A stretch of 4,439 nt of DNA from a virus (taxonomy: Duplodnaviria; Heunggongvirae; Uroviricota; Caudoviricetes): IMG/VR virus record IMGVR_UViG_2778261462_000001; one strand, 5' to 3'. The notes below the pieces were generated by a model, which had not been told where the DNA came from, searched no databases, and saw only the letters and a program-made list of their open reading frames with translations. The position numbers were made by a program, and so were the translations under genes. Below, piece by piece: positions 1-4,439 of the stretch (positions are counted from its first letter, which is position 1; each line of letters starts with the position of its first letter).

Positions 1-127
1 GTTTAATTATATCGAATGTGATTACAATCGGTGGCGGCGGCACAGTTGGTGTGGCGGCCTCAGTCCGGAACAATTTGAAAACAAGAACCTCGCTTAGGCC
101 TGTGTCCATATTACGTGGGTAGGATCA
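1..127 (+). mobile_element. IS3-family insertion sequence, 3' (right) end; the element continues upstream of the window
   Basis: The sequence ends at 127 with ...GGCCTGTGTCCATATTACGTGGGTAGGATCA, i.e. the 5'-TG...CA-3' terminus typical of IS3-family elements. From memory this matches the right terminal inverted repeat of E. coli IS3. The preceding frame encodes a transposase-like C-terminus. The boundary at 127/128 is set by where that recalled repeat ends. Confidence 0.7.
2..97 (+). CDS. IS3-family transposase OrfB (InsF-like), C-terminal fragment; 5' part lies outside the window
   Basis: Frame 2 is open from the window edge to TAG at 95-97 and encodes ...[28 protein letters not shown]. The YN-x-RRHS...LSPEQF pattern is the conserved C-terminal tail of IS3-family DDE (rve) transposases. 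It is absent from the supplied ORF track only because it has no in-window start. Confidence 0.6.
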
Positions 128-176
128 TGGAGGCACCAGGCACTGCATCACAAAATTCATTGTTGAGGACGCGATA

Positions 177-365
177 ATGAAAACGTTATTACCAAACGTT
201 AATACGTCTGAAGGTTGTTTTGAAATTGGTGTCACTATCAGTAACCCAGTATTTACTGAAGATGCCATTAACAAGAGAAAACAAGAACGGGAGCTATTAA
301 ATAAAATATGCATTGTTTCAATGCTGGCTCGTTTACGTCTGATGCCAAAAGGATGTGCACAATGA
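177..365 (+). CDS. hypothetical small protein (62 aa), first gene of a two-gene small-ORF pair
   Basis: ATG at 177 is preceded by GAGGA (165-169) at 7 nt spacing. Its TGA stop (363-365) overlaps the ATG (362-364) of the next ORF as ATGA, a classic translational-coupling arrangement. I recognise no family for the product. Confidence 0.4.
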   Translation: MKTLLPNVNTSEGCFEIGVTISNPVFTEDAINKRKQERELLNKICIVSMLARLRLMPKGCAQ

Positions 366-553
366 ATTCAGCATTTGTGCTTGTTCTGACAGTTTTTCTT
401 GTTTCCGGAGAGCCAGTTGATATTGCAGTCAGTGTTTACAGGACAATGCAGGAGTGTATGACTGCAGCAACCGAACAGAAAATTCCCGGTAACTGTTACC
501 CGGTCGATAAAGTTATTCACCAGGATAATATCGAAATCCCGGCAGGTCTTTAA
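362..553 (+). CDS. hypothetical small protein (63 aa) with a hydrophobic N-terminal segment (signal-peptide or membrane-anchor-like)
   Basis: ATG at 362 is preceded by AAGGA (347-351). The product MNSAFVLVLTVFLVSGEPVD... opens with an uncharged hydrophobic stretch of about 14 residues followed by a polar region with two Cys. The ORF track extends the frame upstream to ATG 308 (81 aa), but 362 has the better ribosome-binding site and the ATGA overlap. Confidence 0.5.
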   Translation: MNSAFVLVLTVFLVSGEPVDIAVSVYRTMQECMTAATEQKIPGNCYPVDKVIHQDNIEIPAGL

Positions 554-645
554 AACAGTTCCGTAATAAATATCCGGTTTCATTCTTATATGCCAGCAAT
601 GGCAGGGATTTGTTCATCCTTAAATCTGTCATGAGGTTAAAACAA

Positions 646-3117
646 ATGAGTAAAGTCTTTATTTGCGCCGCTATTCCTGACGAACTGGCAACAAGGGAAG
701 AAGGCGCTGTGGCTGTAGCCACAGCCATTGAAGCTGGCGACGAACGCCGTGCTCGAGCAAAATTTCACTGGCAATTCCTGGAACATTATCCGGCTGCTCA
801 GGACTGCGCTTATAAATTTATTGTCTGCGAGGATAAACCTGGCATACCCCGCCCTGCCCTCGATTCATGGGATGCTGAATATATGCAGGAAAACCGCTGG
901 GATGAGGAGTCTGCTTCTTTTGTCCCGGTTGAGACTGAATCCGATCCGATGAACGTCACTTTTGACAAGCTGGCCCCTGAAGTACAGAACGCTGTCATGG
1001 TTAAGTTCGACACATGTGAAAACATCACCGTTGATATGGTTATTAGCGCACAGGAATTGTTGCAGGAAGACATGGCAACATTCGACGGACATATCGTTGA
1101 AGCGTTGATGAAAATGCCAGAAGTTAACGCCATGTATCCGGAGCTTAAGTTGCACGCCATTGGGTGGGTTAAGCATAAATGTATTCCTGGTGCTAAATGG
1201 CCCGAAATTCAGGCAGAGATGCGCATCTGGAAAAAACGTCGCGAAGGTGAACGCAAGGAAACCGGAAAATACACGTCTGTTGTTGATCTCGCCCGCGCCA
1301 GAGCCAATCAACAGTACACTGAAAATTCAACAGGAAAAATCAGCCCGGTCATTGCTGCCATTCATCGCGAATACAAGCAGACATGGAAAACACTGGATGA
1401 CGAACTGGCCTACGCTCTCTGGCCTAGTGATGTGGATGCCGGAAACATTGACGGCAGCATCCATCGCTGGGCAAAAAAAGAAGTTATCGACAACGACCGC
1501 GAAGACTGGAAGCGTATCTCGGCATCAATGCGCAAACAGCCTGATGCCCTTCGCTACGACCGCCAAACTATTTTTGGCCTTGTCCGTGAGCGTCCGATCG
1601 ACATTCACAAAGATCCCGTAGCACTGAACAAATATATCTGCGAATACCTGACGACAAAGGGCGTGTTTGAGAATGAAGAAACAGACCTGGGCACTGTTGA
1701 TGTTCTCCAGTCATCAGAAACACAAACTGATGCAGTGGAAACTGAGGTATCTGATATCCCAAAAAATGAAACCGCGCCGGAAGCTGAACCATCTGTAGAG
1801 CGTGAGGGGCCGTTCTATTTCCTCTTCGCAGATAAGGACGGAGAAAAATACGGTCGCGCAAACAAACTCTCTGGTCTGGATAAGGCACTGGCTGCTGGCG
1901 CCACTGAAATCACAAAAGAAGAATATTTTGCCCGAAAGAATGGCACATACACGGGCTTACCGCAAAATGTAGATACCGCTGAAGATTCAGAACAACCAGA
2001 GCCGATAAAAGTTACCGCTGACGAAGTAAACAAAATTATGCAGGCAGCCAATATCAGCCAGCCTGACGCCGATAAGTTGCTTGCTGCATCACGTGGTGAA
2101 TTTGTTGAAGGGATTAGTGACCCGAATGATCCGAAATGGGTTAAGGGGCTCCAGACCCGCGATTCTGTGAACCAGAACCAGCATGAATCGGAACGGAACT
2201 ACCAAAAAGCGGAACAAAACAGTCCAAATGCGTTACAAAACGAGCCAGAAACGAAACAGCCTGAACCAGTAGCGCAACAGGAAGTGGAAAAAGTCTGCAC
2301 CGCCTGCGGTCAGACCGGCGGCGGCAACTGCCCTGATTGTGGCGCGGTGATGGGCGACGCAACATACCAAGAAACATTCGATGAAGAGTATCAGGTTGAA
2401 GTTCAGGAAGATGATCCGGAGGAAATGGAAGGCGCTGAACATCCACACAAGGAGAACACTGGCGGCAATCAGCATCACAATAGCGATAATGAAACTGGCG
2501 AGACGGCAGATCACCCAATTAAGGTGAACGGTCATCACGAAATCACATCCACCAGCAGGACGTGTGACCATCTAATGATCGACCTTGAAACCATGGGAAA
2601 AAATCCTGATGCCCCGATCATCTCAATAGGTGCAATATTTTTCGATCCGCAAACCGGAGATATGGGACCGGAATTTAGTAAGACTATCGATCTGGAAACT
2701 GCTGGCGGAGTCATTGATCGGGACACCATTAAATGGTGGCTTAAGCAATCACGCGAAGCGCAATCTGCCATTATGACCGATGAAATCCCGTTAGATGATG
2801 CACTGTTACAATTGCGAGAATTTATCGACGAAAACTCCGGTGAATTTTTTGTTCAGGTTTGGGGAAATGGAGCCAACTTCGACAACACGATTTTGCGCCG
2901 TTCATACGAACGGCAGGGGATCCCCTGCCCGTGGCGTTACTACAACGATCGCGATGTACGCACAATCGTTGAGCTGGGGAAAGCCATAGACTTCGATGCC
3001 AGAACGGCTATTCCATTCGAAGGTGAGCGCCATAATGCACTTGATGACGCCCGTTACCAGGCAAAATACGTTTCAGTTATCTGGCAAAAACTGATCCCGA
3101 GTCAGGCTGATTCTTAA
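646..3117 (+). CDS. large prophage-encoded modular protein with C-terminal DEDDh (DnaQ-like) 3'-5' exonuclease domain; N-terminal domain of unknown function; putative prophage exonuclease
   Basis: Single long ORF (track: 610-3117 with a TTG start). I prefer ATG 646 (MSKVF...), which has GAGG at 633-636 about 9 nt upstream; ATG 631 is an alternative. The C-terminal region carries the three DEDDh motifs: Exo I D-L-E in MIDLETMG (D 2581-2583, E 2587-2589), Exo II in WGNGANFDNTIL (D 2881-2883), Exo III H-x4-D in HNALDDARYQ (H 3031-3033, D 3046-3048). Its position immediately upstream of xis-int matches the exo slot of lambdoid pL operons. Confidence 0.85.
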   Translation: MSKVFICAAIPDELATREEGAVAVATAIEAGDERRARAKFHWQFLEHYPAAQDCAYKFIVCEDKPGIPRPALDSWDAEYMQENRWDEESASFVPVETESDPMNVTFDKLAPEVQNAVMVKFDTCENITVDMVISAQELLQEDMATFDGHIVEALMKMPEVNAMYPELKLHAIGWVKHKCIPGAKWPEIQAEMRIWKKRREGERKETGKYTSVVDLARARANQQYTENSTGKISPVIAAIHREYKQTWKTLDDELAYALWPSDVDAGNIDGSIHRWAKKEVIDNDREDWKRISASMRKQPDALRYDRQTIFGLVRERPIDIHKDPVALNKYICEYLTTKGVFENEETDLGTVDVLQSSETQTDAVETEVSDIPKNETAPEAEPSVEREGPFYFLFADKDGEKYGRANKLSGLDKALAAGATEITKEEYFARKNGTYTGLPQNVDTAEDSEQPEPIKVTADEVNKIMQAANISQPDADKLLAASRGEFVEGISDPNDPKWVKGLQTRDSVNQNQHESERNYQKAEQNSPNALQNEPETKQPEPVAQQEVEKVCTACGQTGGGNCPDCGAVMGDATYQETFDEEYQVEVQEDDPEEMEGAEHPHKENTGGNQHHNSDNETGETADHPIKVNGHHEITSTSRTCDHLMIDLETMGKNPDAPIISIGAIFFDPQTGDMGPEFSKTIDLETAGGVIDRDTIKWWLKQSREAQSAIMTDEIPLDDALLQLREFIDENSGEFFVQVWGNGANFDNTILRRSYERQGIPCPWRYYNDRDVRTIVELGKAIDFDARTAIPFEGERHNALDDARYQAKYVSVIWQKLIPSQADS

Positions 3118-3128
3118 TGTTCAACTGT

Positions 3129-3160
3129 CGCCGGTTGTGACTGGTATTCTGCAACCGGCG
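3129..3160. other. perfect 9-bp inverted repeat (hairpin) in the exo-xis intergenic region; possible terminator/attenuator or protein-binding site
   Basis: CGCCGGTTG (3129-3137) and CAACCGGCG (3152-3160) are exact reverse complements separated by a 14-nt loop, 12 nt after the exo stop codon. No U-tract follows on the + strand, so it is not a canonical intrinsic terminator. Confidence 0.4.
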
Positions 3161-3189
3161 CTCGTCTGATGTAAGAGATAAAGAAATCG

Positions 3190-3441
3190 ATGAGCGAAGT
3201 AATCATGATTGTCTCTCCCGGCAAATGGGTATCCGAAGAGCAGTTAATTGCGCTGAAAGGAATAAAAAAAGGTACGTTAAAAAAGGCCCGGGAAAAATCG
3301 TTTATGGAAGGAAGGGAATATAAGCATGTCGCTCATGACGGTATGCCATGGGATAACAGTCCATGCTTTTACAACCTGGAAGAAATTGATCGCTGGATTG
3401 AGCGCCAGGCATCAGCGAGACCAAGACGTCATCTTACTTGA
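3190..3441 (+). CDS. excisionase-like small DNA-binding protein (putative Xis / recombination directionality factor)
   Basis: 83 aa basic ORF immediately upstream of, and co-oriented with, the integrase gene (19-nt gap), which is the canonical xis position. The call rests mainly on size, position and composition, not on a recognised motif. An alternative start is ATG 3205. Confidence 0.55.
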   Translation: MSEVIMIVSPGKWVSEEQLIALKGIKKGTLKKAREKSFMEGREYKHVAHDGMPWDNSPCFYNLEEIDRWIERQASARPRRHLT

Positions 3442-3460
3442 CTAAAAGCCACACTAACTA

Positions 3461-4312
3461 ATGAGAGAAGTTGAAATGAAATATCCGACAGGCGTGGAAA
3501 ACCATGGAGGGAAATTACGTATCTGGTTTGTTTATAAAGACGTAAGAGTCAGGGAAAATCTGGGGGTTCCTGACACAGCAAAAAACAGGCGCGTTGCAGG
3601 TGAACTACGCTCCTCTGTTTGTTACGCAATAAAAACTGGTGTTTTCGACTATGCAAAACAGTTTCCCTCCTCACGCAATCTGGAAAAATTTGGTGAGGCC
3701 CGACAAGATTTAACCATAAAAGAACTGGCTGAAAAATTTCTGGCACTGAAAGAAACTGAAGTCGCCAAAACATCACTCAACACATACCGTGCCGTCATCA
3801 AAAATATCCTGAGCATAATCGGTGAAAAAAATCTTGCCTCATCGATTAATAAAGAAAAATTACTGGAGGTTCGTAAAGAGTTACTGACTGGATACCAGAT
3901 CCCCAAAAGTAACTATATTGTTACACAACCAGGGAGATCGGCTGTAACTGTAAATAATTACATGACAAATCTTAACGCCGTGTTCCAGTTTGGTGTTGAT
4001 AACGGTTACCTGGCAGATAATCCGTTTAAGGGGATCTCGCCATTAAAGGAATCAAGAACCATTCCGGATCCTCTTTCGCGGGAAGAATTTATCCGTCTTA
4101 TCGATGCGTGCAGAAATCAGCAAGCAAAAAATTTATGGTGTGTTTCTGTTTATACTGGAGTTCGCCCTGGTGAGCTGTGTGCACTTGGATGGGAGGACAT
4201 AGATCTGAAAAATGGAACAATGATGATCAGGAGAAATTTAGCAAAAGACCGTTTCACGGTACCAAAAACACAGGCGGGAACCAATCGGGTCATTCATCTT
4301 ATTAAGCCAGCA
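3461..4312 (+). pseudogene. phage tyrosine integrase (IntE/IntR-like, with N-terminal arm-binding domain), 3'-truncated by IS1 insertion
   Basis: The N-terminus MKYPTGVENHGGKLRIWFVYKDVRVRENLG matches, from memory, the PTGVE...LRIWF arm-binding motif of e14/Rac-type integrases (more likely start ATG 3476). Catalytic box I is present (TGVRPGEL, then KTQAGTNRVIHL), but the downstream H-x-x-R box and the catalytic Tyr are missing. The reading frame runs into IS1 at 4313, and the ORF-track tail [26 protein letters not shown] is translated IS1 DNA. Confidence 0.85.
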
Positions 4313-4439
4313 GGTAATGACTCCAACTTATTGATAGTGTTTTATGTTCAGATAATGCCCGATGACTTTGTCATGCAGCTCCACCGATTTTGAGAACGAC
4401 AGCGACTTCCGTCCCAGCCGTGCCAGGTGCTGCCTCAGA
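4313..4439 (-). mobile_element. IS1 insertion sequence, terminal 127 bp (insB-proximal end); the element continues beyond the window
   Basis: 4313 onward reads GGTAATGACTCCAACTTATTGATAGTG..., which I recognise as the IS1 terminal inverted repeat, followed by the complement of the insB 3' end. The junction at 4312/4313 lies inside the integrase frame. Confidence 0.9.
4328..4439 (-). CDS. insB: IS1 transposase InsB, C-terminal fragment (3' end of gene; rest outside window)
   Basis: The reverse complement of 4328-4439 translates to ...[36 protein letters not shown] followed by a stop (TAA, complement of 4328-4330). This matches the InsB C-terminus as I remember it. Confidence 0.8.

Follow-up and report, generated by a model that had tools for sequence, protein, structure and literature searches.

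Positions 177–553 almost certainly hold the neighbouring genes dicB and ydfD from a lambdoid prophage of the Qin type, as found in Escherichia coli and Shigella, with the roles reported for those genes. The window, by which we mean the whole 4,439-nt stretch of DNA analysed, is the entire 4439-bp draft contig NNVF01000126.1 (GCA_002485555.1), with IS repeats at both ends. The upstream ORF encodes 62 amino acids, with a GAGGA motif 7 nt from its ATG, and the downstream ORF 63 amino acids, with an AAGGA motif 8 nt from its ATG; the two are joined by an ATGA at 362–365, in which the TGA of the first (363–365) overlaps the ATG of the second (362–364). An earlier note, made from the sequence alone, had described this arrangement of two small ORFs with their own ribosome-binding sites accurately, and the profile searches that it proposed give both products a name. 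The 62-residue protein is matched over positions 1–62 of 62 by PF05358 (DicB; E = 1.9e-40, 136.8 bits, cut-off 27) and by NF049927 (NCBIfam CellDivInhibDicB, ‘cell division inhibition protein DicB’; 132.8 bits, cut-off 100), and in direct comparison it is identical to K-12 DicB at 62/62 residues. The 63-residue protein is matched by PF07358 (DUF1482; E = 1.3e-26, 92.7 bits, cut-off 25) and, over positions 1–63 of 63, by phrog_1092 (E = 2.4e-36), and shares 62/63 residues with K-12 YdfD. The one substitution, H26Y, stems from a T in place of C at nucleotide 437, and tyrosine is the majority or consensus residue at this position in the family alignment.

At the nucleotide level, window positions 128–700 match the Qin prophage of MG1655 at 572/573 nucleotides (99.8%), with a single difference, and RefSeq annotates the matching regions as dicB and ‘lysis protein YdfD’. 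Positions 1–700, a query that also takes in 127 nt of IS3, are matched in 5129 of 5426 complete E. coli genomes, 3616 of them over at least 80% of the query. Nothing found contradicts the identity of DicB and YdfD. Both are known, named and characterised genes: the sequence of dicB dates from 1988 (Cam et al. 1988, as listed among the references of PMC6832061), and ydfD was characterised in work dated 2016 (Masuda et al.) and 2022 (PMC8835842). As a discovery the pair therefore matters little here, the finding being explained by the known genes.

Table 1 Features of the 4,439-nt window.
Feature	Position	Strand	Basis or remark
IS3, last 127 nt (end of transposase orfB, stop TAG at 95–97)	1..127	+	exact match to annotated IS3
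IS3 right terminal repeat, ...TGGGTAGGATCA, oriented toward dicB	116–127		
Remainder of native dicB leader, 49 nt, with GAGGA at 165–169	128..176	+	identity to K-12 Qin starts at 128
dicB, 62-aa cell-division inhibition protein DicB	177..365	+	PF05358, NF049927, K-12 identity, RefSeq
ydfD Shine–Dalgarno sequence AAGGA inside the 3′ end of dicB	349..353	+	sequence; a purine-rich Shine–Dalgarno sequence lies at similar distance in all divergent junction variants
ydfD, 63-aa lysis protein YdfD (DUF1482)	362..553	+	PF07358, phrog_1092, 62/63 with K-12, RefSeq
Weak terminator-like hairpin TGCCAGCAATGGCA followed by T-rich GGGATTTGTT (putative)	591..604	+	consensus scan only; between ydfD and the exonuclease gene
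823-aa exonuclease, C-terminal DEDDh (Rv2179c-like) domain	646..3117	+	PF16473, E = 2.4e-67; phrog_2082 over full length
Excisionase	3190–3441		
Arm-type tyrosine integrase	3476–4312		IS1-interrupted

Downstream of dicB, the window keeps the Qin arrangement of ydfD, exonuclease, xis and int; upstream of dicB, IS3 stands in place of the Qin sequence and runs to the end of the contig. At the other end, an IS1A terminus at 4313–4439 cuts the 426-residue Qin integrase short at about residue 279 and removes its C-terminal catalytic part. The exonuclease carries YdfE_N and YdfE_C domains and a CxxC...CxxC motif near residue 545; its start is placed at TTG 610 in the ORF of the gene list and at ATG 646 in the annotation.

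A longer frame, open from ATG 308 to 553 (81 amino acids), would, if it alone were translated, leave no separate coupled 63-residue product. ATG 308 is present, with no intervening stop, in all 41 close alleles, and some automatic gene calls give 81-residue products. This ATG lies inside dicB codons (I-C), however, which accounts for its conservation, and it is conserved only among the close Qin-type alleles. Of the four junction variants among divergent pairs, three (the −4 junction of PPompW with its GTG start, the −10 and the −1) lack any in-frame upstream start, and the fourth, the +1 variant of Citrobacter, has such starts but places them elsewhere. A start aligned with M1 of the 63-residue form is kept by each intact homologue (GTG in one), the Pfam and PHROG profiles both begin at residue 19 of the longer product, and position 308 lacks a Shine–Dalgarno sequence whereas 362 is preceded by AAGGA. 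The 63-residue ORF is also the form experimentally shown to lyse cells (PMC8835842). Translation of the 81-residue frame alone is hence scarcely credible, and the 63-residue reading, against which the earlier note had set that frame, stands. A 66-residue reading from ATG 353 was also rejected.

Conservation of both ORFs in related prophages, the absence of which the earlier note would have counted against its reading, is extensive. Each of the 165 loci retrieved with either protein has both genes, side by side apart from a few loci in which ydfD is disrupted, and the ATGA junction is kept in all 41 distinct ungapped full-length alleles. A DUF1482 gene lies immediately downstream in each of the 20 GenBank phage records with DicB, and the divergent DicB proteins of Salmonella and Citrobacter (60–66% identity) are likewise followed by DUF1482, across junctions of −10, +1 and −1 nt that each have a purine-rich Shine–Dalgarno sequence. 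Between divergent homologue pairs, Nei–Gojobori dN/dS is 0.08–0.5 for both genes, indicating purifying selection on both; this measure replaced codon-position counts among close alleles, which are uninformative because too few of their variable sites are shared by descent. Taken with the profile matches, this conservation goes well beyond chance. The two genes have different histories and recombine independently: relative to the window, DicB is 56% and YdfD 75% identical in one locus (L178), and 95% and 84% identical in another (L005).

In a 2016 account, no sequenced phage genome then encoded DicB (PMC5069750). The pair is now present in 20 deposited phage genome records, not only in cryptic prophages, with examples in Tritos (OV696610), HannyBb (PP925841), mEp460 (LR597641) and PhiR42_1 (PV340562). 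L005 (JAGZPX010000007.1) is an Escherichia-type dicB–ydfD locus in a metagenome-assembled genome labelled Veillonella parvula, most likely a binning contaminant. Disrupted or fused forms also occur: ydfD is frameshifted or truncated in a Shigella flexneri locus (L006, CP182557.1), a 1-nt insertion fuses dicB to ydfD in L040, and database proteins of 92–108 amino acids carry both Pfam domains (P0102, P0128). Within DicB, residues 1–37 are near-invariant across the aligned Escherichia, Salmonella and Citrobacter sequences, and the C-terminal 25 residues take two distinct forms, ...ERELLNKICIVSMLARLRLMPKGCAQ and ...EPYLLNDNSILSRIALLELGIFGEQQ.

DicB binds MinC, and ZipA targets the complex to the septum, where the FtsZ ring is destroyed and the cells filament (PMC6832061). 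Taken from the literature on an identical protein, the DicB of the window would be expected to bind MinC in the same way, to be brought by ZipA to the septum, to depolymerise the FtsZ ring and so to block division and produce filaments. Transient expression of dicBF also raises resistance to lambda by about 25-fold (efficiency of plating 0.04) to about 100-fold (the figure in the abstract), and the resistance extends to other phages that inject their DNA via ManYZ; it needs dicB and the DicB–MinC interaction, and deletion of ydfD has little effect (PMC6832061). Through the same interaction with MinC, DicB would inhibit ManYZ and block the entry of lambda-like phage DNA. Sequence searches of the PDB with the DicB and YdfD profiles returned nothing meaningful.

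In K-12, the pair belongs to the dicBF operon, ydfABC-dicF-dicB-ydfD-ydfE, whose single promoter, dicBp, is under repression by DicA that Rem relieves; a search inside the operon gave no further promoter, a ydfABC-dicFB-ydfD transcript is described, and the longest RNA observed stops after ydfD (PMC10448788). There, dicB and ydfD are the distal genes, transcribed from dicBp, which lies upstream of ydfA. The putative hairpin between ydfD and the exonuclease gene could correspond to the transcript end after ydfD.

In the window, this upstream control appears to have been severed. Positions 1–127 are the exact 3′ end of an annotated IS3 (L181 7067–7193; transposase CDS 6001–7163, + strand). The point in K-12 that corresponds to the junction lies 125 nt downstream of the end of DicF (L001 3824–3875, junction 4000/4001), and Rfam models, with a threshold of E ≤ 1, find neither DicF nor any other RNA in the window; DicF is absent because IS3 is inserted downstream of dicF. 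Since IS3 lies between dicF and dicB, the pair is cut off from dicBp and from control by DicA, and would be transcribed here only by read-through or by weak outward transcription from IS3. Two motif pairs in the IS3 end, TTTAAT (2–7) with TACAAT (23–28) and TTGGTG (46–51) with CAATTT (71–76), form putative outward promoters; such ‘3R(+)’ pairs of IS3 have been described as putative outward promoters (PMC12095673).

The exact IS3–dicB junction was absent from IMG/VR viral contigs and JGI metagenome contigs, and none of the 5426 complete E. coli genomes matches it contiguously; the source contig and one independent Logan assembly (L184) were the only places where it turned up. Two other contigs carry the Y26 ydfD allele with the native leader. 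Matches in E. coli that seemed to cover 1–4312 or 128–4439 were set aside, as they come from genomes with an IS3 or IS1 elsewhere in Qin.

It is quite possible, though short of probable, that dicB–ydfD is a silent, decaying remnant in this strain, in which IS3 has removed the promoter and neither protein is made. IS3 ends only 49 nt upstream of dicB, the dicBF operon has no other promoter (PMC10448788), a consensus scan finds no sigma-70 consensus on the + strand of positions 1–800, the prophage is otherwise degraded, with IS1 in its integrase, and a pause or termination signal that damps outward transcription is reported at the right end of IS3 (PMC12095673). Against this, both ORFs and both Shine–Dalgarno sequences are intact, and DicB is identical to that of K-12. 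IS3 also faces dicB and has both of the motif pairs to which outward promoter activity has been ascribed, its wild-type end gave a measurable reporter signal and it is a documented mobile promoter (PMC12095673), and an independent sequencing run (L184) shows the junction as well. One possibility, which we rate as rather improbable, is that IS3 drives low-level, DicA-independent synthesis of DicB, which would confer constitutive exclusion of ManYZ-dependent phages.

The 4-nt ATGA overlap, with the Shine–Dalgarno sequence of ydfD inside dicB, would allow coupled or closely balanced translation of the two proteins. Expression of ydfD is summarised as causing almost complete lysis, which does not occur when dicB, or sulA as an inhibitor of division unrelated to it, is expressed at the same time (PMC8835842, summarising and citing Masuda et al. 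2016). Since either inhibitor prevents it, YdfD lysis depends on ongoing division, so DicB translated from the same mRNA would be expected to mask it. YdfD binds IspG in pull-down, size-exclusion chromatography, ITC and FRET experiments (Lu et al., PMC8835842). In the same study, killing is abolished when even one terminal residue is removed, reduced toxicity is reported to remain in the C-terminal part alone, cysteine mutants keep IspG binding, and overexpression of ispG or supply of HMBPP rescues the cells (PMC8835842). YdfD would thus bind and inhibit IspG, an enzyme of the MEP isoprenoid pathway, starving the cell of the undecaprenyl-phosphate carrier and rapidly lysing cells that divide. 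This mechanism is as reported by one study, from pull-down, ITC, FRET and rescue rather than enzyme kinetics, and both the division-dependent lysis and the IspG binding are carried over to the Y26 allele of the window from the literature on K-12 YdfD (H26), to which they would probably extend.

The IspG mechanism fits uneasily with the N-terminus and the two conserved cysteines of YdfD, which would also suit a location in the envelope. YdfD begins MNSAFVLVLTVFLVSG, with a best 11-residue Kyte–Doolittle mean of 3.17 at residues 4–14; F5, L7, L9, L13, G16 and E17 are invariant in alignment A1, as is C32, and C45 is at least 90% conserved. The earlier note had proposed a signal peptide or single-pass anchor here. 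The conserved hydrophobic segment that prompted the proposal is real and makes either plausible, but the uninterrupted apolar run is only 14–17 residues long, against a benchmark of about 19 or more for a single-pass anchor, and in eight diverse members K and R are missing from the first five residues, where a Sec signal would have its basic n-region. A Sec h-region, with a benchmark of 7–15 residues before small residues at −3 and −1, is recognised by heuristic rules only, with a core AFVLVLTVFLV followed by V-S-G|E, a pattern kept in homologues. An AlphaFold2 model of YdfD, built from a 17-sequence alignment, has a pLDDT of 57.8, with helices at 3–15 (pLDDT about 63) and 19–38; it is of low confidence, too poor for a fold search, and adds nothing to the argument. 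The abstract of Masuda and colleagues is said to propose that YdfD associates with the cytoplasmic membrane.

Taken further, these features could mean that YdfD is an exported or membrane-inserted envelope protein that kills from the membrane or the periplasm rather than via cytoplasmic IspG, a reading that we consider unlikely. The conserved hydrophobic N-terminus (FALVLTVFL) speaks for it, as do the invariant G16–E17, the small residues at −3 and −1 (V-S-G|E, T-T-G|E, A-N-S|E), which fit the signal-peptidase rule, the two near-invariant cysteines, the best 19-residue Kyte–Doolittle mean of 2.0 in the YdfD of the window and the low-confidence helix at 3–15. In the divergent members, however, that 19-residue mean falls to 0.77–1.39, over the same short apolar run and the same n-region lacking K and R, and the partial activity of the C-terminal part alone, the IspG binding of the cysteine mutants and the rescue by ispG or HMBPP (PMC8835842) all speak against it. 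With a cytoplasmic target in IspG and a reported partial activity of the C-terminal part by itself, the published data point to action in the cytoplasm, so that a cleaved signal peptide, in particular, is unlikely. The cytoplasmic IspG mechanism is the preferred reading, and it has still to be reconciled with the signal-peptide-like N-terminus and conserved cysteine pair.

Because co-expressed DicB abolishes killing by YdfD, the pair behaves phenotypically as a toxin and its antidote, and a bona fide toxin–antitoxin module, in which DicB would bind YdfD directly and so neutralise it, has to be weighed. For such a module speak two small genes overlapping by 4 nt, a lethal downstream product whose lethality is abolished by the upstream product, and a DicB that is always accompanied by DUF1482 when present. 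Against it, the unrelated SulA protects equally: because it does, protection would be indirect, through division arrest, and the pair does not fit a canonical toxin–antitoxin system. DicB is, moreover, itself reported as toxic on overexpression (PMC10448788), the two genes recombine independently, and PADLOC, which contains no defence-system model for either protein, gives no match. The obligate co-occurrence that characterises type II modules is also missing, as DicB is lacking from 9 of the 29 phage records with DUF1482 and from 160 IMG/VR loci with that gene, including phages of Klebsiella, Salmonella and Citrobacter. We regard the toxin–antitoxin reading as very unlikely, and prefer indirect masking of YdfD lysis through division arrest. 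The earlier note had inferred a host-takeover, superinfection-exclusion or toxin–antitoxin-like module; this holds insofar as the pair combines a division inhibitor that excludes phages with a lysis protein masked by DicB, but the named genes had gone unrecognised and the toxin–antitoxin part does not apply in its canonical sense. As for whether homologues always occur as a pair, which the note had asked, they do so in one direction only, DicB with DUF1482.

The 160 IMG/VR loci (L187–L346), of Klebsiella and Salmonella/Citrobacter types, have another small ORF upstream of DUF1482 in place of DicB. These upstream ORFs encode proteins of 37–41 amino acids (phrog_22279), 66 amino acids (phrog_3722) or 42 amino acids (unclassified), unrelated and uncharacterised, and in all but one of the 160 loci (159) they share 1 or 4 nt with the beginning of DUF1482; two further DicB-less loci (L166 2391–2692 and L167 2301–2698) also have one of these small ORFs upstream. 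The DUF1482 genes of these lambdoid phages belong to the same Pfam and PHROG family as ydfD, lie, like it, between the immunity region and the exonuclease gene, and overlap an upstream small ORF as ydfD does, but that partner is not DicB. We put forward tentatively, as a rather improbable interpretation, that DUF1482 lysis genes belong to two-gene cassettes whose upstream member can be exchanged and is DicB in Escherichia. L166 contains three consecutive ATGA junctions, and because such overlaps are common along these early operons, tight spacing alone is no proof of a functional pair. Should the pairing be functional, the small proteins found in place of DicB would act as new inhibitors of cell division or as antidotes by which lysis of the YdfD type is masked; they are candidates for new division inhibitors. 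The 42-residue partner was considered as a Kil homologue and rejected, with no support from Pfam, NCBIfam or PHROG, and Pfam scans of the window and of the partner proteins find no Kil family.

Lambda Kil and Rac KilR are small proteins of the early left operon that block formation of the FtsZ ring. DicB resembles them in its neighbourhood, upstream of recombination or exonuclease genes, but has no sequence similarity to them and acts via MinC, in a complex that ZipA brings to the septum. YdfD, for its part, is comparable to the small phage-encoded proteins of single-gene lysis, such as phiX174 E acting on MraY, Qbeta A2 on MurA and LysM on MurJ, in that growing cells lyse when the supply of cell-wall precursors is blocked, an analogy drawn by the authors of PMC8835842. 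It differs from them in its reported target, IspG of the MEP pathway rather than a peptidoglycan enzyme, and is unrelated to them in sequence. It is probably not the lysis device of the phage, because its gene lies in the early left operon and the lambdoid phage has a holin–endolysin cassette besides. Compared with Qin of K-12, the contig has the same ATGA overlap, the same Shine–Dalgarno sequences and the same exonuclease gene downstream. The two differ in that IS3 separates dicF from dicB in the contig whereas K-12 has an intact ydfABC–dicF leader, in Y26 against H26 of YdfD and in the integrase cut by IS1 in the contig; conversely, the exonuclease is full length in the contig, whereas ydfE of K-12 is an IS2-truncated N-terminal part.
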